DNA of 64,000 nt, taken from Bacillota bacterium (lineage in GTDB: Bacteria > Bacillota > Sulfobacillia > DUMF01). This document shows, one piece after another, positions 2,786 to 39,505 of this stretch; the stretch's first letter is position 1, and each line of letters begins with the position of its first letter. Below the pieces are notes generated by a model. It did not search any database and was not told the DNA's origin. It saw only the letters and a list, made by a program, of their open reading frames with translations. Both the position numbers and the translations under genes were made by a program. The stretch spans positions 21,176-85,175 of the forward strand of contig DUMF01000026.1 of assembly GCA_012840015.1 (NCBI GenBank). The letters run 5' to 3'.

Positions 2786-3322
2786 TCAGCGCATCCAAGT
2801 GCATACTTCCGGAAGAGACTTCCGCCGCCTGGGAGACGGCCGTTCTGCAGGGTACCCGAGCGGTATTATCGCCAAGGGGCGTATCACCGACGGGTCCAAG
2901 TTTAGACAACGCGCCGCGCGACCCTCGTCGAAAGCCCCCACCCAGCACGTTCCCAGCCCGAGTGCAGTAGCAGCTAACAAGATATTCTCCACCGCCGCAG
3001 CAGTGTCTTGGATCAGGTACAATTCTCGGCCGCGCCTCCCATAAGCCTTCTCTGCTTCGGCCGGTACTCCGCAAACCACGATCACACACGGCGCAGCGGC
3101 CACAAACTTTTGCCCGAACGCCGCCTCGCTCAGGCAAGTGCGAATCTTCTCGTTAAGCACTACGAAGAACCTCCATGGCTCCACGCCACCAGCCGTTGGC
3201 GCCTGCACAGCAGCTTCGATCAGGCGGTTGATGATCGCATCCGGAATCAGCTTTTGCTCAAAAGAGCGCACGCTACGGCGCTCCCTGATTGCGTCGAAAA
3301 CATCTTTGGTCATGTTCATCAT
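2786..3322 (-). CDS. Nitroreductase-family protein
   Basis: 178 aa with RRSVRSF near the N-terminus and a GLGTCWVG motif typical of NADH nitroreductases. Confidence 0.8.
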   Translation of the reverse strand: MMNMTKDVFDAIRERRSVRSFEQKLIPDAIINRLIEAAVQAPTAGGVEPWRFFVVLNEKIRTCLSEAAFGQKFVAAAPCVIVVCGVPAEAEKAYGRRGRELYLIQDTAAAVENILLAATALGLGTCWVGAFDEGRAARCLNLDPSVIRPLAIIPLGYPAERPSPRRRKSLPEVCTWMR

Positions 3323-9556: not shown

Positions 9557-9988
9557 TTACCTGTTTCTGCGCTGCGTTAGGTTTTTATGTAGCTCGAGGA
9601 GGTACTCGTAATCCCTATCGTGCTTTATTTTGTTGCTCTTGTGGGGCAGCGTTCTCAAGGCTATTTCCATCAAAGCGTCGTTTCCATTTAGAAAATATGC
9701 GGTCACTAACTCGTTGAAAGTCTTGATGTCTTTGAGGCCCATGGCGCGAGTGATTTTGGAGTATATTGTTTGCGGTGTTACCTTTTCCTCTTCGGCTATT
9801 GGGGGTATTATTTCTTCCGACAGGACTCGGTTCAAGAGCTTGTAATCGTCTTCTTTCAATTCCAACGCAAGCAAGGGACTGGGATAAAGAAAGACCTCCA
9901 ACTCCGAAAGGGCTGTCATGATTCGCCCGAAATGACGGGTTTTCTTTGATAGCCATTCTTGATTGATGACAGAAAAGTTTTCTTGCAT
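9557..9988 (-). CDS. Hypothetical protein, possible HTH, in AT-rich cassette
   Basis: 143-aa ORF in a visibly AT-rich stretch. It contains EEKVTPQTIYSKITRAMGLKD, a helix-turn-helix-like segment. No recognisable family. Confidence 0.45.
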   Translation of the reverse strand: MQENFSVINQEWLSKKTRHFGRIMTALSELEVFLYPSPLLALELKEDDYKLLNRVLSEEIIPPIAEEEKVTPQTIYSKITRAMGLKDIKTFNELVTAYFLNGNDALMEIALRTLPHKSNKIKHDRDYEYLLELHKNLTQRRNR

Positions 9989-11445: not shown

Positions 11446-12228
11446 TTAGCCGTGTTCACCTCCCTCCACAGCTGGGTGCGACGGCATTGGAACCCCAGCG
11501 CGAAGCTTGTCCTTGAGCCGGTAGCTCTGGCCGCGGATGTTGATGGTAACGGAGTGGTGTAGAAGGCGATCAAGCAAGGCGCTGGCTAAAATGGGATCGC
11601 CGAGCAGTTGTCCCCAGTTACCGTAGCTCACGTTGGAAGTGATGATGATCGACCCCTTCTCATACCTCTCTGCCACGACCCGGAAGATATGGGCCGCGTC
11701 CGCTGGCTCGATGGGCAGATACGTCATCTCGTCCAGTATGAGGAGCTTTGGCCGCGTATAGAGCTTCAGGCGCCTTTCAAACCGGTTCTCAAGGTAGGCC
11801 TTTCTTAGATCCGAAATCATTTCCTGGGCCGTGATGAAGTAGGTGCTGATGCGCCGCTTGACGGCTTCTATTCCCCAGAGCGACTGCAAGGTGCGTCTTC
11901 CCGACCCCGGGTGGGCCCAGAACCAGGATATTGGTGGCATTGTCAACGAAACCCAAGGTGGCCAGTTCCCTTACCTGGCGCTCGTCTATCGAGGGCTGAA
12001 ATGAAAAGTCGAACTCCCCGAGCGTGCAGCCAGCTTCATGAACGCAGTAGTATACCTCTGATAACGATATTCCATCTCCGCATCAAGCAAGCGGGCGATG
12101 AACTCGGTGTAGGTAAGCGATTCCCTTGCCGCTTCCTCGGCATGAGAAGGAAGCAAATCCGCCATTCGGTTAAGGCCTAGCTCACGCAGCAAGGCATCTG
12201 CTCGGTCAAGCGCCATGGCTTCGTTCAT
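11446..12228 (-). pseudogene. istB: IS21 helper ATPase IstB, frameshifted between N-terminal and Walker-A regions
   Basis: N-terminal piece 12228-11986 (LRELGLNRMADLL...TYTEFIARLLDAEMEYR). C-terminal piece 11946-11446 starts at HPGSGRRT and has LILDEMTY and ASALLDRL. Confidence 0.7.
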
Positions 12229-13457
12229 CTGCCCATCACCAACCGCTCGTACACATCAAGCGGCCGAACCTCCACATCGGGCGCCAGCTGGTGCGCGTAG
12301 ACGGTCTGCCGGAACCGTGCGGAACCCATGGGAATACCGCGGTAGTGCCTGCGGTCCACGACCGTCCGGTAACGCCCTCTCATCACCTCGTGAGTGGCTA
12401 CCACTTGGCCGGCGTGTTCAACGGTCAGGACTCCCTTTTCGTTCTCCCTGACGAGCACTGTATGGCCTACCAGGTTCCAGGGAACGGAGTAACGGTTCGA
12501 GTACCAGGAGATAAAGCAGTCTAAAGATACCCGCCGGGGTTCGATTTCCTCCAGTAAGAATCGTCCGCCCGGCAGGGGTTGCAGGTTCTCCTCCTGCCAC
12601 CTTTTTAAAGGGACCTCGTGGGTGGTGCCATGCACTCTCACGTTGGCCACTGCATCCCGCCAGGCCAAGGCCTGCCGGTTGAGATCATCTATGTCGGTGA
12701 AGTTCACCGGCCAGAAGCTATCTCGTATGTAGCGAATGGGTCGCTCGATCTTTCCTTTCGTCCGACTGCGGTAGGGACGGCAGGCCCGGGGAGTGAAGCC
12801 GTAGTGCTCGCAGAAGCGGAGGTACCCAGGCTGCCAATTGACTCCGTCCTCGTCGCGGGAAAGCACAAGGCTTGAGCAGTTGTCGCTAAGCGCTTCCACA
12901 GGGACACCTCCGAAGAACTCCAGAGCGTTGCGCAGTCCACGTAGTATATTCAATTGATCTGACCTTGGGATGAATTCTACGTAAAGCATGCGGGAGTAAC
13001 AGAGAGTCATGGCGAAACAATACACCGTGGACACCGTATTGTTTGCGTCAAGATACTTGAACATCCCTAAGTCGAGCTGGGCCTGCTGGCCGGGCGGAGT
13101 CTCGAACCTGCAGGTAGCTTTCCCTGCAAGTGGTGGACGGTAAGGTCTCATGAAGTCGCGCAGGATGGTGATCCCGCCCTGGTAGCCACGTTCGCGTATT
13201 TCTCGCAGCAGTCGGGCGGCGTTAAAGACTCCGGCCTCCATGCGCTCGAGGAGGTAGTCCTTGTGAGCATCCAGTTTGCTACCTCTTCTTGCTCCCTGCG
13301 CTTCACCTGGGACCCGCCTGAACGCTTCGTCGGTAACTACCTTCCTGATCGTCTTGCGGTCATGTCCGGTGCGCCGTGCCAGTTCGCTGATACTAACTCT
13401 CTCACGATACGCTTTTCTGATGTCCAACATTTCCTCACCCCTTAGCATTCTGGGCAC
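12225..13457 (-). CDS. istA: IS21 transposase IstA
   Basis: 410 aa with an N-terminal HTH (ISELARRTGHDRKTIRKV) and a DDE region. Adjacent to istB. Confidence 0.85.
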   Translation of the reverse strand: MPRMLRGEEMLDIRKAYRERVSISELARRTGHDRKTIRKVVTDEAFRRVPGEAQGARRGSKLDAHKDYLLERMEAGVFNAARLLREIRERGYQGGITILRDFMRPYRPPLAGKATCRFETPPGQQAQLDLGMFKYLDANNTVSTVYCFAMTLCYSRMLYVEFIPRSDQLNILRGLRNALEFFGGVPVEALSDNCSSLVLSRDEDGVNWQPGYLRFCEHYGFTPRACRPYRSRTKGKIERPIRYIRDSFWPVNFTDIDDLNRQALAWRDAVANVRVHGTTHEVPLKRWQEENLQPLPGGRFLLEEIEPRRVSLDCFISWYSNRYSVPWNLVGHTVLVRENEKGVLTVEHAGQVVATHEVMRGRYRTVVDRRHYRGIPMGSARFRQTVYAHQLAPDVEVRPLDVYERLVMGR

Positions 13458-31506: not shown

Positions 31507-31991
31507 CTAGAAAACGTGCCTGTGAGCGAGATGTTCCTGCACTGCCATAAGCGTTTCGCCGAATCGCTGAAAATGCACGATTTCGCGTTCTCTCAGAAAG
31601 CGCAGTACTTCAGACACGTTAGCATCGTCGGACAACCGGATTAGGTTTTCGTAAGTGGCTCTGGCTTTTTGTTCCGCCGCCAGGTCTTCATGCAAATCCG
31701 CGAGCGGATCTCCCTTAGACTGGATGTATGAGGCTACCCACGGTGCACCGGAAGCATTGACGAAGTAAAGGGCCTTGTCGTGATCTGCATAGTACTCATC
31801 CATACCCGCGCGCCGGATCTCCTCGATAGATGCATCCTTCACCAGGTTGTATACCAGCGCGGCTACCATCTCCATGTGAGCAAGCTCTTCTGTCCCGATA
31901 TCGGTGAGAGTAGCCTTCGCCCTGGCTATGGGCATGCTGTACCTCTGGGTTAGATACCTCAACGATGCGCCGAGTTCACCGTCGGGGCCGC
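31507..31991 (-). CDS. cotJC: cotJC (Mn-catalase-like spore coat protein) 3' segment, codons about 34-189, split from its 5' end
   Basis: From DGELGASLRYLTQRY to the C-terminus the sequence matches CotJC/Mn-catalase family (TDIGTEELAHMEM, AAEQKARATYENL, REREIVH). The apparent N-terminal 38 aa of the track ORF are element-derived. Confidence 0.8.
31981..31991. repeat. 11-bp recombination core GTCGGGGCCGC (copy 1, attL-like)
   Basis: Identical 11-mer at 38806-38816. Flanks differ immediately outside the core. Confidence 0.7.
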
Positions 31992-32304
31992 TCGACTGCA
32001 ATTTTTTCCACTGTTCTAGCCGGTGAAAAAAGCCTCGGAGAAGGGCACGCACGAAGGATGAAATCTCTTCCGTCATCGAGCCACGTGCGTCAGGCCGTTT
32101 CTGCATGGCAGGAGGTTTTAATGGGATCTCCCTTTTACTCCCTATATTGACCCTTTTTACGCCCTAATAGCCTTCAACCAGTTGATAGAATCATGGTTTC
32201 TCCAGCTAAAAAGCATTTACCCGGTTGCCCTACGTTCGGCATAATAATTGCTTAGTGTACCCAACAACACAGCTGCGGCAAAAAAACGGCGATGGCGGTG
32301 ATTC

Positions 32305-33399
32305 ATGCTGCGGGAAGTCCAAGAGATCGTAGAACTTACCAAGAGCTTCATTAGGGCAAAGGCGATTGACGCCAGCGGTGTAACCCAGGCTATGGAGATT
32401 GCCGAATCCTGGCTGAAATCGAGGGGGGTGAGAGTTTATAAGGAAAGAAATCAGGGCTTGCCCATGATTGTAGCGTTCGTGGGTCCAACTGGCCCTCAAG
32501 ACCGCGCCAAGGTTCTGCTCAACGGGCACCTCGACGTGGTACCTGGCAAGCCTGAACAGTTCGAGCCGTATGAGTCCGGTGGGAAGCTATTCGGAAGAGG
32601 AAGCTACGACATGCTGGCGGCTGCTGCAGCGATGATGAACTGTGTGGCCAGCCTTGCGAATAAATCTTCATCTCAAGCGGTCGCACTAATGCTGGTTCCA
32701 AGTGAAGAGACAGCAGGCGAGATCGGTACGGGTTTCCTTCTCCAAAAAGGCGTGACGGCAGACTTCGCCATATGTGGCGAGCCTACAAACCTCGGAATAG
32801 CGATCCAGAGCAAAGGCGTACTCCAGATAGAGCTGGAGGTATCGGGTAAGGCCGCTCATGGCTCGAGACCGTGGGAAGGAGAGAACGCGATAGAAAACGC
32901 CTTACACCTTTACAAACAAATAGCGGAACTACCTTTTATGCAAGCACACTCAAGCTGTTATAATGGGCCTTCCCTAAATCTGGCTCGCATTGCAGCAGGC
33001 GATGCTATCAACCGCGTGCCAGACAAGTGCGTGATAGCTCTTGACATCCGTTACTTGCCGGGCCAGCAGTGGCAAGCAATCCTGGAAGAAATTCGGGGTC
33101 TAGCACCGTCCAGCATTAAGGTAATATCTACAGGTGCGCCTGTGTGCGTAGACCAAAATGACCCGCACGTGCTGTTGCTAGCACAAGCAGTCCAGAAGTA
33201 TACGGGCTCGCCTGCTAGGTTCATCTGTCAGCATGGCGCGGCAGACACCAGGTTCTTCGCAGAGGCAGGAATCCCATCGGTCGAGTTCGGACCAGTCGGA
33301 CGGAACCACCATGGTGAGGGCGAGTACGTGGAAGTCAATTCAATCGGCACTTTTCTATCCATCTTGAAGGATTTCATTGAAAGGGAGGTCAAAGCTTAA
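32305..33399 (+). CDS. M20-family peptidase (ArgE/DapE-like deacylase)
   Basis: Contains NGHLDVVP and other M20 metal-ligand motifs. 364 aa. Confidence 0.8.
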   Translation: MLREVQEIVELTKSFIRAKAIDASGVTQAMEIAESWLKSRGVRVYKERNQGLPMIVAFVGPTGPQDRAKVLLNGHLDVVPGKPEQFEPYESGGKLFGRGSYDMLAAAAAMMNCVASLANKSSSQAVALMLVPSEETAGEIGTGFLLQKGVTADFAICGEPTNLGIAIQSKGVLQIELEVSGKAAHGSRPWEGENAIENALHLYKQIAELPFMQAHSSCYNGPSLNLARIAAGDAINRVPDKCVIALDIRYLPGQQWQAILEEIRGLAPSSIKVISTGAPVCVDQNDPHVLLLAQAVQKYTGSPARFICQHGAADTRFFAEAGIPSVEFGPVGRNHHGEGEYVEVNSIGTFLSILKDFIEREVKA

Positions 33400-34784
33400 T
33401 GCATTTGCTGGACTCCATCATCTTCTACCTTTATCTGGCCAGCAACTTGTTCATCGGCTGGTATTTCACAAAGAGAGCCAGGAGCGCTGATGAATTTATC
33501 GTAGCTAATAGGTCTCTTGGTCTGTCAGTATTCATAGCTACCATGGTAGCCACCTCTGTCGGAGGGGGAACTACTATAGGTTATGTGGGCACTATTTATC
33601 AGGGCGGGCTGCTCCTCGTGCCTTCGATACTACTCTTCTACGTGCTGCAGGTAATAATCGCACTGGCTCTGGCAGAACGGCTTAGAGGCTTTGCTGGCTA
33701 TACGGCGCCGGATGTGCTGGGTAGGACATACGGCAAATGGGCTCAGTTGGTTGGCGGAATCGAGAGCATGATTTACATGCTCGGCACAGGTCCTGCACTT
33801 CAAGCGATCGCACTTGGCACTCTCATCAGGATATTCACCGGTTGGCCGCTGGCCTATGGTGCGATACTGGCTATGGCCATTATCGTGATTTACACATATG
33901 CGAGCGGGCTATGGGGCGTGGCCATGACGGATTTCATGCAGTTCATAGTGATGGCCTTTGGCCTGGCGATATGCGGTATTCTGGCTTTAGGTAAAGCGGG
34001 AGGCTGGGCCGGAATCCTGGCCTCAGTGCCTTCCGGATACTTCGATTTCAAGACGAACATCAAATCCATGATCGAGCTGGCTTTTGCCTTATCGCTCCCA
34101 GGGCTAATCGATGGGAACAGGTACCAGAGGTTTTATGCTGCCAAAGATAAGCGTGTGGCCAAAGCTGGCTACCTGCTGGCCATAATTCCGTGGCACCTTA
34201 TGTTCTCCATGATATTCGTGTGCGGCTTCGCCTCCAGGGTGCTTCTAACTGGGGTCAAAGGCGACGCGATATTCCCCACCCTGGTCCTTCAAACCCTACC
34301 TATCGGGCTGCGGGGGTTGGTATTTGCAGCACTCGCGGCTGCCATAATGTCCACCGCTGATTCGTATACGCTTGTCGGTGCTACCAACTTTACGGAAGAC
34401 ATTTACAAGCCGTTCATAAACCCCCATGCCACCGATGAGGAGATCGTCCGCGTTACCAAGCTCAGCGTAGTGGCCCAAGGGGCGTTAGGTGTCATACTAG
34501 CGTTGTGTGTCCCATCCATAATGGGGGTTTGGACGCTAGCCTCGACAGCTTATGTTGGCGGTTGCTTCGTTCCGATGATGGCAGCGTTGTTCACGAAGGG
34601 ACAAAAGTCGCCCGCGGCCGCTCTGTCGTCTATGATACTTGGCGGAGGTATAGGGGTTTACCTGAAGCTGGCGAACAAGTCAATTCTGGGGCAATCGCCA
34701 ATCGTGATAGGCGTGCTGGTGAGTCTAATCGTATACGTGGTTGTCCAGGCAGCCTCACCGCAGAAGCGCGAAGCCATATCATGA
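33399..34784 (+). CDS. Sodium:solute symporter (SSS) family transporter
   Basis: 461 aa, 13 predicted TMs. SSS-family conserved glycine-rich segments. Confidence 0.8.
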   Translation: MHLLDSIIFYLYLASNLFIGWYFTKRARSADEFIVANRSLGLSVFIATMVATSVGGGTTIGYVGTIYQGGLLLVPSILLFYVLQVIIALALAERLRGFAGYTAPDVLGRTYGKWAQLVGGIESMIYMLGTGPALQAIALGTLIRIFTGWPLAYGAILAMAIIVIYTYASGLWGVAMTDFMQFIVMAFGLAICGILALGKAGGWAGILASVPSGYFDFKTNIKSMIELAFALSLPGLIDGNRYQRFYAAKDKRVAKAGYLLAIIPWHLMFSMIFVCGFASRVLLTGVKGDAIFPTLVLQTLPIGLRGLVFAALAAAIMSTADSYTLVGATNFTEDIYKPFINPHATDEEIVRVTKLSVVAQGALGVILALCVPSIMGVWTLASTAYVGGCFVPMMAALFTKGQKSPAAALSSMILGGGIGVYLKLANKSILGQSPIVIGVLVSLIVYVVVQAASPQKREAIS

Positions 34785-34937
34785 GGGGGTTCATCAAATG
34801 GACGTTCTAATCTACTTGCATGCGATCGCCTTGATCGCCTTTTCATGTTGGATGGTATGGGTATTCTTCCAGAAGGAATGGAGCCAAAACTACGCAAGCA
34901 AGAACTAGAATAATTTGGTACCGGAGGCGCTTCTATC

Positions 34938-35831
34938 ATGGATTACGTTGAGAGCTTGCGAGCGATGAACTACCAGGATACGTGGTCCAAGCTCTACTTA
35001 CACCTGGCAAAGGGGCTTGTAGCCGAGTTTGGTCTCGACGGTGAAGCGGCGGTGCGGAAGGCAGTTCGAGACTTCGGAGTAGACAGGGGCAAGGCCCTTA
35101 AGGCACTGCATGAGAAATATGGGCTGAAGCTCAATTTATACAACCTATTTACCTTTTACGATTTGCCCAACGACCCGAGGTTCCGGCGAAACAAAATCAG
35201 CCTGACGTCTCAGCAAAGGCTTTCTGAGACGCTAGTTTGCCCTATCGCAAACATGTGGGCCAGTATGGGCGGAAAGGAACTGGGTCGAGTCTATTGTGAG
35301 GAGTTCCACCACGCCATGTTCATGGCGTATGCTCCGAAGGCACAGGTAAACCTCTCTCAGACCCTGACGCAGGAAGGCGACGATCACTGCAGATTCTCGG
35401 TCTATTTGAGGCCGGCAAACATGGACGAGGCTGAACGGCGTGCTTCATTCGAGGAGTTCGACAAGGATTATGTCAAGCCGGCAGTCTATCCGGAATGCCC
35501 AAGCCACCGGGCCGGGTTCGGTGTACTCTGCGCCAAGCTGTACTATCATATGGTCAGGGTAGCGAAGGAACGCTTCGGAGCCAAGGGGCTGGAGGTTATC
35601 GGCCGCGCTACAAAGGCATTCGCCGCAGATATGTATACTTTTCTGAAGGGCCGTGCCGAAGCGACCGGCGATGCATTCAACGAAGCATTCGTCAGGGAGA
35701 ACTGCCCTATCGAGTTCCCAGTAAACGGTAAGCTAGGTGGACCGTGGGAACAGTTCACCGACCCTGATGCCGAAAGACTCATGATAAGCGAGTTTTTCGG
35801 AGAGCTCAAAAGGCAGCTCGCCGTCAAGTGA
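34938..35831 (+). CDS. Possible L-2-amino-thiazoline-4-carboxylate hydrolase-like protein (weak)
   Basis: 297 aa with CPIANMW and GDDHCRFSVY motifs. These are reminiscent of the ATC-hydrolase family, from memory only. Confidence 0.35.
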   Translation: MDYVESLRAMNYQDTWSKLYLHLAKGLVAEFGLDGEAAVRKAVRDFGVDRGKALKALHEKYGLKLNLYNLFTFYDLPNDPRFRRNKISLTSQQRLSETLVCPIANMWASMGGKELGRVYCEEFHHAMFMAYAPKAQVNLSQTLTQEGDDHCRFSVYLRPANMDEAERRASFEEFDKDYVKPAVYPECPSHRAGFGVLCAKLYYHMVRVAKERFGAKGLEVIGRATKAFAADMYTFLKGRAEATGDAFNEAFVRENCPIEFPVNGKLGGPWEQFTDPDAERLMISEFFGELKRQLAVK

Positions 35832-37380
35832 AGTATACCGAGCTTACGCGGTAAAGGCTGTCGATATAAACTGCATGTAGTACGGCCGAGACGAGCGCTA
35901 GCTTTACGCCGTGCTCGAGTTCGTCTGGATGGCGGAGCAAATCCGCCATCTTTTTTGCAATCGCCGATGCCTCTCGCAGGTGATCTCCTTCAGAGTTCGC
36001 CTCACGAGCGAGTCGCTCCAATTCCAAGCGCAGTGATAGGCTTTCTTTACGAAGCTCCGACATCCGCTCCTGGTATTCTTCAACCGTAATCGCTCCTTGT
36101 TCGAAAGCCAGGCTCTCGAGCTGTCTGGCCTCTCTGTTTCGTGCGGCGAGCTCCAGTATTTTCTGCCTACGCTGGCTTAGATCGTCTCGCCCAATTCTCA
36201 TGTGCCGTACGACCGCGGAGAGAAGTCTGTCGTGGTCTGAAACCGCACCTGCCACCAGATCCATGAGTATCTTGTCGCAAACGTCCATATTCCACGAGCG
36301 TCGTGCGGACTTACACGTTCCGTCGCGGTCGCTGCAAAAGTATGCCCGCCTTTCTCCATGACCGTAGAGTTTACTTCCGCAAACACCACATCGCAGCACC
36401 CCCGAGCCCAAATACCGTTTCCCCGATTGCCATTCGTGCCAGTGCAGCTTGCGGCGAGTTTCCATCTCCTTCTGAAGAAGCTCCCACTCTGCCCTGCTCA
36501 GCAAAGGCTGGTGTGTACCTTCTTTAATCACCCATTCTTCCTTCGGCCTGAGCACTCTCTTGGCCAGCCCGGTTTCTGCGTCACGCACCAGCGTCGTGGC
36601 ATTGTATATGGTGACTCCAAGGTACACAGGGTTGGTTAACACGATCCGCACGGCGTTCGGGTACCATCTTCTGCCCCTGTTAGGTTTTATGCCACGCTGG
36701 TTCAACCACTTCGCGATCTTCGATTGCCCCCAGCCGCTAAGGAACTTCCACACGATTTCCCTGTAAATAGGCGCACGTACGGGGTCCGGTTCGAGGTGCC
36801 CTCCGTCAGCGGTACGCTTATACCCAAAAGCGGGCGTCGCAACGTTGGTCTTTCCATCGCGAGCCTTGAGCATCTGTGTTAGTTTTACCCTGCTTGAAGT
36901 TACCTTACGCTCCCGCTGTGCAAGACCGCCATGCAGCAAGAGGAAGAACTCATCCTCATCCGTCCGGCTGTCATATCCTTCTTTTATCGAAATGAAACAG
37001 GCTCCGCAACTGGCAAGCTCCCTCTTCAACTCCAGCAGGTCGAGGATGTCCCTCGAGGTCCTGGAGATTTCCTTGGTCACAATACCATCGATTCTGCGTG
37101 CTATGACATCGCGCCGCAGTTCCTCCATCTCGCGGCGCGAACCGGCGTATGCACCTGTCCTAATGTCCACATAATGGCGCACTATTTCGTGACCGTTGAA
37201 CAAGGCCCATTCGTTCAGCAGCCGTTTCTGATTCTCAATGCTGCTCCTCTGCTCTTCTTTCCGAGTCGAAACCCTCACGTAGCCCCCCAGCCGCAGTCCC
37301 TTTCGAGCCAGACTGCTCCGAGGATCTTTTAACTCTGGTAGTCTTGTCCCCAGCACGTGAGCCGGTATCAGATCCTCCAT
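35824..37380 (-). CDS. Large serine recombinase (resolvase catalytic domain, recombinase domain, zinc ribbon, coiled coil)
   Basis: GYVRVSTRKEEQRSSIENQ (catalytic Ser), CGVCGSKLYGHGERRAYFC zinc ribbon, and a C-terminal coiled coil. 518 aa. Confidence 0.9.
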   Translation of the reverse strand: MEDLIPAHVLGTRLPELKDPRSSLARKGLRLGGYVRVSTRKEEQRSSIENQKRLLNEWALFNGHEIVRHYVDIRTGAYAGSRREMEELRRDVIARRIDGIVTKEISRTSRDILDLLELKRELASCGACFISIKEGYDSRTDEDEFFLLLHGGLAQRERKVTSSRVKLTQMLKARDGKTNVATPAFGYKRTADGGHLEPDPVRAPIYREIVWKFLSGWGQSKIAKWLNQRGIKPNRGRRWYPNAVRIVLTNPVYLGVTIYNATTLVRDAETGLAKRVLRPKEEWVIKEGTHQPLLSRAEWELLQKEMETRRKLHWHEWQSGKRYLGSGVLRCGVCGSKLYGHGERRAYFCSDRDGTCKSARRSWNMDVCDKILMDLVAGAVSDHDRLLSAVVRHMRIGRDDLSQRRQKILELAARNREARQLESLAFEQGAITVEEYQERMSELRKESLSLRLELERLAREANSEGDHLREASAIAKKMADLLRHPDELEHGVKLALVSAVLHAVYIDSLYRVSSVYFT

Positions 37381-37558
37381 CCGCCTTCACCGCTTCCCAC
37401 AGTACGGCTACCACTCTGTCGTACACGTCCGGAACCTCGGGAATGCCTCCAGCCAATTGGTCCCACCAGAGAATATTTACGCCGCTTCGCCCAGCGGTAG
37501 ATCAGGAAGCACTTGACAAGTGATCGCTCTAGTGGCTAAGTATGAGGAGGGCGCTAGG

Positions 37559-38704
37559 ATGTACAGGCTTTTTCGATTCTGCTTTACTTCGCTCTTACTG
37601 TTGGCACTGTTCGTGCCATTACTAGTGGTTCACAACGCACGGGCTACCCCTAGAGTCGTCTTGGACGGACAAACCATCACCTTCGACGTACCTCCAGTAA
37701 TCGAGCAAGGACGAACTCTCGTCCCCTTGCGCACGATCTTTGAAGCCCTAGGCTGCACCGTGGAGTGGGACCCTGAGAGCGCTACTGTCATCGCCACCAA
37801 AGGGCATACCACGACCATTAAGCTGACAGTGGGCGACAGCATAGCGTATAAGGACGGCCAGCGCGTTCACCTGGACGTGCCGAGCAAGCTCATCCGCGGC
37901 AGGACGATGGTGCCTTTGCGTTTCCTGAGTGAAGCGCTGGGCGCCAGCGTCTCATGGGACGAGGCCACACAAACCGTAACCATTCTCACTCAGCCTGAAG
38001 CAGCAGGCCCCAGCTTATCTCTAGTCTCATCTCTCGTCGAGGCCAGAGTCACAAAGGTCGTTGACGGCGACACAATCTACGTAGAGTTGCCTCAAGGACG
38101 GCAGGAAAAGGTGCGCTTCATCGGTGTGAATACCCCTGAGAGCACTATTGCGCATGAGCCGTACAGCAAGGAGGCTTCAGCATATACGGCCCGGCGGTTA
38201 AGCGGGGCAACGGTTTACCTCGAGAAGGACGTCCAGGAACGCGATAAGTACGGTCGCCTTCTCGCCTACGTGTGGCTGGCACCACCTGAGGAACGCTCCG
38301 AGCAGGAAATAAGGAGGAAGATGTTCAACGCGGAGCTGCTTCGTGAGGGTTACGCCCAGGTGATGACCGTCCCGCCCAATGTCAAGTATGTAGAGGTATT
38401 TCTCAAGCTCCAACGAGAAGCGCGGGAAGCCGGTGAGGGCTTGTGGAGTCTCGAGGACCAAACACCTGAAACTAACCCTTCCCAGCTACCTAGCGTTCTG
38501 GCAGGCCAGCACGACGGGGTACGCCAGGGCGCCGCGGTAAACCAGCAGGACGCGTCTCAGAAGACGGTATACATCACTAAGAGCGGGAGCAAGTACCACC
38601 GTGATGGGTGTAAGTATCTCAGCAAGAGCAAGATTCCCATTTCCCTGAAAGAAGCAAAGAGGCGAGGCCTCGAGCCTTGTCTGAGCTGTAGGCCGGGCTG
38701 CTAA
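37559..38704 (+). CDS. Secreted thermonuclease (SNase-like) with two copper-amine-oxidase-N-like wall-binding domains and C-terminal Cys motif
   Basis: Signal peptide, then two repeats of VLDGQ..F.V.P....GRT.VPLR...E.LG..V.WD. SNase motifs follow (VVDGDTIYV, VRFIGVNTPE, GRLLAYVW), and the protein ends SKYHRDGCKYL...PCLSC. Confidence 0.75.
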   Translation: MYRLFRFCFTSLLLLALFVPLLVVHNARATPRVVLDGQTITFDVPPVIEQGRTLVPLRTIFEALGCTVEWDPESATVIATKGHTTTIKLTVGDSIAYKDGQRVHLDVPSKLIRGRTMVPLRFLSEALGASVSWDEATQTVTILTQPEAAGPSLSLVSSLVEARVTKVVDGDTIYVELPQGRQEKVRFIGVNTPESTIAHEPYSKEASAYTARRLSGATVYLEKDVQERDKYGRLLAYVWLAPPEERSEQEIRRKMFNAELLREGYAQVMTVPPNVKYVEVFLKLQREAREAGEGLWSLEDQTPETNPSQLPSVLAGQHDGVRQGAAVNQQDASQKTVYITKSGSKYHRDGCKYLSKSKIPISLKEAKRRGLEPCLSCRPGC

Positions 38705-38805
38705 CCTCTGCCGCCGAGGCATAATTATTGGGCGTTCAACCGCAGCAGCTCAACTGGGGTGTGCTGGCCCGTGACATCTTAACCATGACATGTCAAAAAA
38801 ATGCA

Positions 38806-38816
38806 GTCGGGGCCGC
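38806..38816. repeat. 11-bp recombination core GTCGGGGCCGC (copy 2, attR-like)
   Basis: Identical to 31981-31991. Confidence 0.7.
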
Positions 38817-38904
38817 CGTACTGTGTGATGATGACTTTCGCCAGGCGCGGATTTGGTCTAGTGATGCGAATCGGGTGTTCCGTCATCTTTTCATACAGCC
38901 ACAC
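38806..38904 (-). CDS. cotJC: cotJC 5' segment (33 codons) directly after cotJB
   Basis: GTG start 1 nt after the cotJB stop, with GGAGGG RBS. MWLYEKMTEHPIRITRPNPRLAKVIITQYGGPD aligns with the CotJC N-terminus (MWVYEKKLQYPVKVSTCNPALAKLLIEQYGGAD). After the core it reads into the element and stops 8 codons later. Confidence 0.75.
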
Positions 38905-38905
38905 G

Positions 38906-39178
38906 TTAAATCCCTCCTTCAAATACGATCTCCCAAGGCCATGGCTCGTCCACCCAACGCCACGTGCCAGAGCTTTCCGAGAAGCCGTAGTTGATCAGGG
39001 GCCCGTACCTCATCTCGTACATGCTCACAGCCGTTCTTAGTTCCTGAACTGTAGCGTTGTAGTCGGCCAACGCCCTCTGGTCATCGGGATGAGTATCCAG
39101 GAAAAGGTTGAGATCAGTGGCCGTGAACTGGAGCTCCATGATTCTCCTCAAAAGAGAAAGCCTGTCGCTCATGTGCAA
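38906..39178 (-). CDS. cotJB: Spore coat protein CotJB
   Basis: Contains LLRRIMELQFTATDLNLFLDTHPDD and YEMRYGPL, matching CotJB-family signature. Confidence 0.85.
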   Translation of the reverse strand: MHMSDRLSLLRRIMELQFTATDLNLFLDTHPDDQRALADYNATVQELRTAVSMYEMRYGPLINYGFSESSGTWRWVDEPWPWEIVFEGGI

Positions 39179-39265: not shown

Positions 39266-39505
39266 TCAGCCCTGAATACGGTAAGGCTTATATAGTTCTG
39301 GAAATATAGTGCCGCGTCTCAACCCTTCCGCTGGATCAAATCTCCTCGTGTAGACCTGAATTGGAATGAAGGCCATTGCAAGCTCGCCGAATCGGAATAG
39401 TGCCTTGAACTGGTTTTCGTCCATCGACACGGTCTCCCCGGCCATAGGTGCACCTCCTACCTGTCTTGGCAACATACTTTTATAACAACATATTCCGTCA
39501 AGCAT
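39266..39505 (-). CDS. cotJA: Spore coat associated protein CotJA
   Basis: AFIPIQVY...EGLRRGTIFPELYKPY matches the CotJA motif. Confidence 0.7.
   Translation of the reverse strand: MLDGICCYKSMLPRQVGGAPMAGETVSMDENQFKALFRFGELAMAFIPIQVYTRRFDPAEGLRRGTIFPELYKPYRIQG

Follow-up and report, generated by a model that had tools for sequence, protein, structure and literature searches.

An integrative element splitting the spore-coat gene cotJC at a serine-recombinase site, probably excised to restore the gene

Characterized intervening elements of sporulation genes interrupt sigK, spsM, spoVFB, spoVR, gerE, and yabG (PMC5595907, PMC10747680). Here, we analyze an insert that splits the spore-coat gene cotJC in a 64,000-nt stretch of a Bacillota bacterium (Sulfobacillia, DUMF01; assembly GCA_012840015.1, contig DUMF01000026.1, positions 21,176 to 85,175 of the forward strand; hereafter, the window is this whole stretch, and unassigned positions are given in its coordinates). 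Judged by its gene content, the insert is a 6,825-bp non-phage integrative element. It probably occupies, in cotJC, the attachment (att) site recognized by the large serine recombinase (LSR) that it encodes and is excised by that enzyme to restore the gene, likely during sporulation. The cotJC element adds a further example to the known sporulation intervening elements and does not represent a new type of system.

Functionally, it most resembles the gin element of Bacillus cereus ATCC 10987, which is also non-phage, interrupts a mother-cell sporulation gene, gerE, and encodes the recombinase GirC and the directionality factor GirX (PMC5595907). The two elements share LSR excision at a short core repeat (predicted for the cotJC element), accessory cargo, and a tiny domain-less directionality factor, the latter being only a candidate in the cotJC element and likened to GirX by size and lack of a known domain, not by sequence. 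They differ in the target gene, in size (28.6 kb for gin vs. 6.8 kb), and in the number of recombinases (three vs. one); gin excision has been shown experimentally, whereas that of the cotJC element is predicted from the sequence. The skin element with SpoIVCA (sigK; B. subtilis and C. difficile) shares the precise in-frame reconstitution of a sporulation gene by an LSR (predicted here), and both spoIVCA and the yin recombinase gene lie, as here, downstream of the 5′ gene piece and in the same orientation (PMC10747680). However, skin is a 48-kb defective prophage that interrupts a regulatory gene, sigK, and late gene expression is gated by removal of the prophage, while the cotJC element is small, non-phage, and located in a structural coat gene. 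SPbeta (spsM, B. subtilis) encodes SprA (YokA), the closest solved relative of the recombinase described here, and has an LSR and a small directionality factor, SprB, under sporulation control (PMC4191935, PMC5499854), for which the cotJC element offers a candidate factor and presumed control; SPbeta is, however, an active 134-kb phage with another target gene and other att sites, and the identity to SprA is about 19%. Finally, in Anabaena heterocysts, which are terminally differentiated, the LSR XisF cuts the fdxN element out of a gene, much as proposed here for the mother cell, but it belongs to another phylum and another developmental programme, and the recombinase of the cotJC element is not its orthologue.

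Insertions into cotJC have been mentioned before. A preprint (bioRxiv 2021.11.22.469490) names cotJC as an insertion target and credits this to Abe et al. 2013 (Mol Microbiol 90:415). For Laceyella sacchari, a skin-like element within cotJC has been reported (Galperin et al. 2022, bioRxiv 2022.02.25.481979). These are in silico mentions of phage, transposon, or skin-like insertions in other taxa, comparable with the present element by target gene alone, the Abe et al. example through its citation; Laceyella is absent among the 120 recombinase homologues listed. No experimentally characterized cotJC element was found in the literature searched. Hence, the statement of the original prediction, made from the same DNA, that no characterized element of this kind was known stands as worded, with its novelty lowered by the earlier mentions. 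The present analysis adds a defined site, a recombinase clade across Clostridia, a candidate co-factor, and a cultured test organism, as well as evidence of prolonged vertical inheritance accompanied by changes of cargo.

The interrupted operon has the order cotJA-cotJB-cotJC and lies on the minus strand. The 5′ piece of cotJC (38806–38904, codons 1–33; the tblastn match spans residues 1–33) starts with GTG 1 nt past the cotJB TAA, with GGAGGG upstream, and encodes MWLYEKMTEHPIRITRPNPRLAKVIITQYGGPD followed by unrelated sequence; in the unexcised state it extends eight codons into the element. The 3′ piece (31507–31991, minus strand; codons 31–190 and the stop, the shared core being counted) encodes a peptide beginning with GELGASLRYLTQRY.... 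Deletion of 31992–38816 (6,825 bp) yields a 573-nt open reading frame (ORF) of 190 amino acids, reading ...TQYGGPDGELGAS.... The joined product matches Pfam Mn_catalase over residues 1–183 (E = 2.3e-54), is matched over residues 1–190 by 80 uninterrupted cotJC genes with identity up to 73% (tblastn), and is colinear with uninterrupted 190-aa homologues, without indels across the TQYGGPDGEL junction. The comparison set here comprises clostridial CotJC homologues, not CotJC of B. subtilis. In silico, precise excision restores an intact frame. The positions of both gene pieces, the start codon, and the ribosome-binding site given in the original prediction hold throughout, and the two in silico checks it proposed, joining and translating the flanks and aligning the product, gave an intact in-frame CotJC with the Mn_catalase match and colinearity described above. 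No further copy of cotJC is present in the 64-kb window. In GenBank, the region 31507–32076 (minus strand) is a 189-aa "manganese catalase family protein" (HHV79549.1) with an element-derived N-terminus; the public record thus shows the 3′ piece as a stand-alone protein, and the split gene is unrecognized there.

The same arrangement is seen in other genomes. Of the 34 loci whose recombinase shares at least 40% identity with that of the window, 24 have cotJC broken between GGPD and GEL; the others are mostly contigs ending at or near the recombinase. The architecture, the codon, and homologous recombinases recur in >20 independent assemblies, including the finished genome CP001720. The recombinases closest to that of the window are found in loci L081 (10001–11341, P0005) and L082 (10001–11368, P0004), which are syntenic in the order YitT, cotJA, cotJB, cotJC′, element, ′cotJC, DHDPS, threonine dehydratase, with the gene split at the same codon. 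They are 64–66% identical to the recombinase of the window, and the neighbouring host proteins are 65–89% identical; in keeping with long residence, three syntenic relatives all have an element here, and a fourth close relative also has a split cotJC. The cargo of these two elements (L081 11377–14909, L082 11397–14964) is wholly different, consisting of phosphoglycerate mutase, enolase, and class II aldolase, with a PilZ protein also found in one of the two. As a separate observation, central glycolytic genes in these genomes are located within an excisable element.

More distant homologues (41–49% identical) also adjoin cotJC broken between GGPD and GEL; their sources are a JGI metagenome, Desulfofarcimen acetoxidans DSM 771, and a metagenome scan. 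D. acetoxidans (L084, CP001720 3139666–3161240, reversed) is cultured and has a finished genome. Its recombinase stop codon is 20 bp ahead of the cotJC 3′ piece, which lies near 3.15 Mb, and the element side carries CRISPR-Cas genes (Cas4/Cas1, Cas2, Cas6) and an AAA_15/DUF4276 pair; the 5′ piece, >10 kb away, was not located. The element side of L083 (1–11605) encodes an nSTAND/NACHT-type protein, a tyrosine integrase, and an SLH/Lactamase_B protein, which suggests defence-type cargo in some family members. The elements range in size from about 3.2 kb to >10 kb; minimal elements of 3.2–3.4 kb are present in L093, L095, L097, L098, and L112, and L098, the only minimal locus with ORFs listed, contains the recombinase, a small ORF, and one unknown 344-aa gene. 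In L112, the match to the 3′ piece (2937–3086) ends at about residue 80, with divergence beginning past residue ~64, while the near-identical L097 is intact; L112 may have suffered a second disruption. The placement of the recombinase varies: it is convergent with cotJ at attL, co-directional before attR, or, as in the window, co-directional near attL. Recombinases of L105, L106, and L165, the last being the IMG/VR contig UViG_3300001041_000017, are 36% identical and have no cotJC fragment nearby; judged from these loci, the cotJC-specific clade ends at roughly 36% identity.

The left junction, attL (38785–38840, minus strand; core 38806–38816), combines a B half in cotJC with a P′ half (TGCATTTTTTTGACA) in the element, and the right junction, attR (31960–32015, minus strand; core 31981–31991), combines a P half (GGAAAAAATTGCAGTCGA) in the element with a B′ half in cotJC. 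As originally noted, both breakpoints carry an identical 11-bp core, GTCGGGGCCGC; these two copies (31981–31991 and 38806–38816) are the only ones in the 64-kb window. By itself, the 11-mer is statistically unremarkable: with one mismatch allowed, 2.07 chance matches are expected, other chance repeats of 11–13 nt are present in the same 7.6 kb, and repeat statistics were dropped as evidence. What gives the core its significance is instead its location at the two in-frame breakpoints, together with its conservation in the family.

All loci entered the junction alignment; for the eight whose two ends were both captured, attP and attB were reconstructed. In the window, the attB junction reads CACACAGTACGGCGGCCCCGACGGTGAACTCGGCGC and the attP junction AATTGCAGTCGAGCGGCCCCGACTGCATTTTTTTG. 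Generally, serine-integrase att sites are imperfect dyads, usually about 40–50 bp long, around a common asymmetric central dinucleotide. The dyad scan of the eight loci shows that attP and attB both peak sharply at one common position, where attP is complementary at 144/192 arm positions (about 30–79 at other centres) and attB at 88/192. The centre is GG, the first two bases of the second glycine codon, and is non-palindromic; the reconstructed sites are thus imperfect dyads sharing a central dinucleotide, and the attP-like dyad seen earlier on the element side is present, though imperfect. Because GG lies at the dyad centre, the crossover is predicted at 38813–38814 (attL) and 31988–31989 (attR). 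In L081, the core at attL (9860–9885) is mutated, GGAGGGCTTGAC vs. GGCGGGCCCGAC in its attR. Relative to the predicted GG, the changes are mostly on the side of the element, and excision would still yield ...GGPDGEL...; the L081 element may be decaying.

The recombinase (35824–37380, minus strand, 518 aa) is transcribed in the same direction as cotJ and, as predicted, is a large serine recombinase. Its catalytic domain matches Pfam Resolvase (E = 1.8e-27, residues 33–177), followed by Recombinase (E = 2.5e-26) and Zn_ribbon_recom (E = 2.7e-6). Arg36, the catalytic Ser38, and Thr39, as well as the zinc-ribbon Cys331, Cys334, and Cys356, are invariant in 44 homologues, and Cys349 is invariant among six aligned sequences. 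In the AlphaFold2 model (predicted local distance difference test score, pLDDT, 81), helices 399–427 and 433–483 form a helical hairpin corresponding to the coiled-coil motif, and the model aligns over its full length with the SPbeta, phiC31, and Bxb1 integrase structures; SprA/YokA of SPbeta is closest by both fold (Foldseek E = 1.7e-22) and sequence (phmmer E = 7e-16). By its sequence and model, with the catalytic serine, the zinc ribbon, and the coiled coil all in place, the enzyme is an intact LSR. The best NCBIfam match is XisF (E = 9.1e-36), at 124 bits far under the equivalog cut-off of 375, and assignment as an XisF orthologue was rejected. The L081 and L082 recombinases have an in-frame loss of about 70 residues, comprising most of the coiled coil (residues ~417–489 of the window enzyme). 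An LI integrase without the coiled coil performs low-level attL × attR deletion without a directionality factor (PMC5499577), and since such a deletion permits factor-free recombination, these two enzymes may, by analogy, be natural excision-only recombinases. Together with the 3.2-kb LSR units, they could serve studies of directionality and the development of recombination tools.

A small ORF (37235–37456, minus strand; 73 aa), beginning with TTG and preceded by GGTGGG at a distance of 5 nt, overlaps the start of the recombinase gene in another frame. Its product starts with MAGGIPEVPDVYDRVVAVLWEAV... and has the N-terminal motif IPEVPDVYDRVVAVLWEAV, conserved across the family. Most family members have a small ORF of 30–85 aa directly upstream of, or overlapping, the recombinase start; it is seen in the window, L083–L104, L109–L112, and L122, while L081 seems to lack it. 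The family shares an amphipathic motif, (I/V)P(D/E)xVYxRLVRxLI or MSKIELLNDIIEYLITKA (also written IPExVYxRLVRxLI or MSKIELLNDIIEYLI). No Pfam family matches the small ORF, and the related proteins in databases are hypothetical and unnamed. Small domain-less directionality factors encoded with the recombinase in the same element are the rule in this class, e.g., GirX of 42 aa (PMC5595907) and SprB, Skr, and CD1234 (PMC10747680); because of this, we propose the small ORF, by analogy, as a candidate recombination directionality factor.

Selection on the split gene was assessed as nonsynonymous (dN) and synonymous (dS) divergence and their ratio (omega). L081 and L082 carry a clearly homologous element, and the insertion is therefore older than their split. 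Joined cotJC of L081 vs. L082 shows dN = 0.035 and dS = 1.28 (omega about 0.03), with dN/dS values of 0.064/0.95 for the 5′ piece and 0.027/1.39 for the 3′ piece; for the window vs. L081/L082, dN is 0.08 and dS is saturated. The recombinases are under purifying selection (omega about 0.1), and this holds for L081 vs. L082 despite the shortened coiled coil (dN 0.24, dS about 2.4). Intact conservation of cotJC in two pieces over such a divergence, beside a conserved recombinase, is the main argument for functional excision, though an indirect one: the pattern argues that cotJC is still reassembled and would be hard to explain otherwise. The original prediction likened the locus to skin, and the in-frame split gene, the direct-repeat cores, the attP-like dyad, and the element-encoded LSR are all present; the likeness is strengthened by the recurrence of the same site in >20 assemblies, by the shared dyad centre, and by purifying selection on both halves of the gene.

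In the proposed mechanism, the target site is the DNA encoding the conserved peptide QYGGPDGEL. The LSR would bind the hybrid sites attL (~38785–38840) and attR (~31960–32015) and cut them with a 2-nt stagger at the GG in the centre, within the second glycine codon; the half-sites would be swapped and religated, yielding a circle with attP and an intact 190-aa cotJC behind cotJB. The small ORF product would be the best candidate for a factor licensing excision. If skin, SPbeta, vfbin, gin, and yin are a guide, excision most likely takes place in the terminally differentiating mother cell, and the forespore chromosome would retain the element, allowing vertical inheritance. Mother-cell expression of cotJC is assumed here from B. 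subtilis. Somewhat further, and only tentatively, the family may represent an ancient, vertically inherited, and domesticated excision switch, widespread in Clostridia, with an LSR clade dedicated to the site encoding GGPDGE, small directionality factors forming an undescribed family of their own, and a cargo slot removed from the mother-cell chromosome at sporulation. The slot contains a transporter–hydrolase set in the window and phosphoglycerate mutase, enolase, and aldolase in the sister genomes.

Several points weigh against sporulation-linked excision. The source is a metagenome-assembled genome of an uncultured organism, and the element is known here from its DNA alone. The exact reconstituted CotJC is absent from about 15 billion proteins, i.e., no empty-site allele of the organism was found there. 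A second CotJC/YjqC paralogue may exist elsewhere in the genome, the copy check spanning the 64-kb window; moreover, cotJC is dispensable for B. subtilis sporulation, and a plain knock-out could be tolerated. In the window, the small ORF runs 146 nt into the recombinase gene, and its directionality role is that of a candidate only. In the window, neither the small ORF nor the recombinase is preceded by a convincing sigma-E or sigma-K promoter, and regular-expression scans show no enrichment of sigma-E/sigma-K boxes upstream of 27 family recombinases; the strict sigma-K pattern gives two matches vs. 0.74 ± 0.87 expected from shuffled sequence. A sigma-70 scan before the recombinase of the window gave nothing. 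By eye, at most a partial sigma-K-like box, AC-N16-CATACTTAG, is visible near 37545–37575. The pattern AC-N17-CATAnnnTA is seen just upstream of the small ORF in L091 (–153), L096 (–173), and L102 and L110 (–169, all counted from the recombinase start), and these sigma-K-like boxes are only suggestive. Since the recombinase in the window, L081, and L082 is co-directional with cotJ and downstream of the cotJC 5′ piece, read-through from the cotJ promoter is a possible, if speculative, source of mother-cell specificity; this is inapplicable to the convergent arrangements.

The cargo of the window element bears on the strongest competing explanation, namely that this is an ordinary integrative mobile element for which cotJC is a mere landing site and is knocked out, any excision serving transfer and not sporulation. 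On the plus strand, the element encodes an M20 (ArgE/DapE-type) metallohydrolase (32305–33399; Pfam Peptidase_M20 and M20_dimer, NCBIfam matches under their cut-offs), a sodium:solute symporter (33399–34784; Pfam SSF, E = 7.7e-33), an ATC_hydrolase-like protein (34938–35831; Pfam E = 6.4e-13), and a protein with Cu_amine_oxidN1 and staphylococcal-nuclease domains (37520–38704; Pfam E = 9.2e-41 and 3.3e-22, NCBIfam thermonuclease match under its cut-off). Such accessory cargo, metabolic in the window and defence-like in L083 and L084, would suit a mobile element, as would the frequent targeting of conserved coding sequences by LSR elements, the dispensability of cotJC in B. subtilis, and the lack of a sporulation promoter in the scans. 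However, a knocked-out gene sits poorly with two intact, strongly selected halves at dS about 1.3 between L081 and L082, whose elements are homologous; the divergence of the recombinase is about equal to that of host genes, and the GC content of the element fully resembles the host's. Transfer, replication, and phage genes are absent from the element, and members down to 3.2 kb carry little beyond the recombinase and the small ORF. We therefore regard this account as rather unlikely.

Composition is fully host-like: GC content is 0.540 in the element vs. 0.544 in the window, no GC or skew break is seen at the element borders, and, given this lack of discontinuity, a foreign origin is not arguable from composition. 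Likewise, PHROGs assigns only an integrase and a nuclease among the element proteins, without structural matches, and no phage recombinase exceeds about 35% identity over any matched stretch in 50,697 phage records. With no phage structural, lysis, or replication genes and no close phage recombinase, a prophage or defective prophage was rejected.

It is more improbable still that the locus is a fossil that has lost excision, with the 3′ cotJC piece expressed alone, e.g., from ATG 32106, as a truncated Mn-catalase-like protein. A 199-aa ORF does run from the element into the 3′ piece, GenBank lists the 189-aa product, and attL of L081 is mutated within the repeat. On the other hand, ATG 32106 has no ribosome-binding site and is taken as a fortuitous start; the recombinase and both att cores of the window are intact, the recombinase is under purifying selection, and conservation extends to the 33-codon 5′ piece, including its start codon and ribosome-binding site. 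An error of assembly or binning that joined unrelated DNA inside cotJC, conceivable for a metagenome-assembled genome, is effectively refuted by the same codon and homologous recombinases in the >20 independent assemblies, one of them finished (CP001720).

If the element is indeed excised by its LSR during sporulation, cotJC would join the few sporulation genes that are reassembled through programmed excision of DNA. D. acetoxidans DSM 771 is a cultured organism in which the excision prediction is directly testable.

Upstream of the split gene, cotJA (39266–39505, minus strand; Pfam CotJA, E = 4.4e-17) is the first gene of the cotJABC operon; its first in-frame ATG may lie upstream of the true start. 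It is followed by cotJB (38906–39178, minus strand; Pfam CotJB, E = 3.5e-30), likely starting with the ATG at 39172 and encoding 88 aa, the form given in GenBank as CotJB (HHV79554.1). Rfam and tRNA scans of the window gave nothing. Elsewhere in the window, an ORF at 12225–13457 (minus strand) encodes a transposase of the rve/Mu-transposase_C type, unrelated to the cotJC element.

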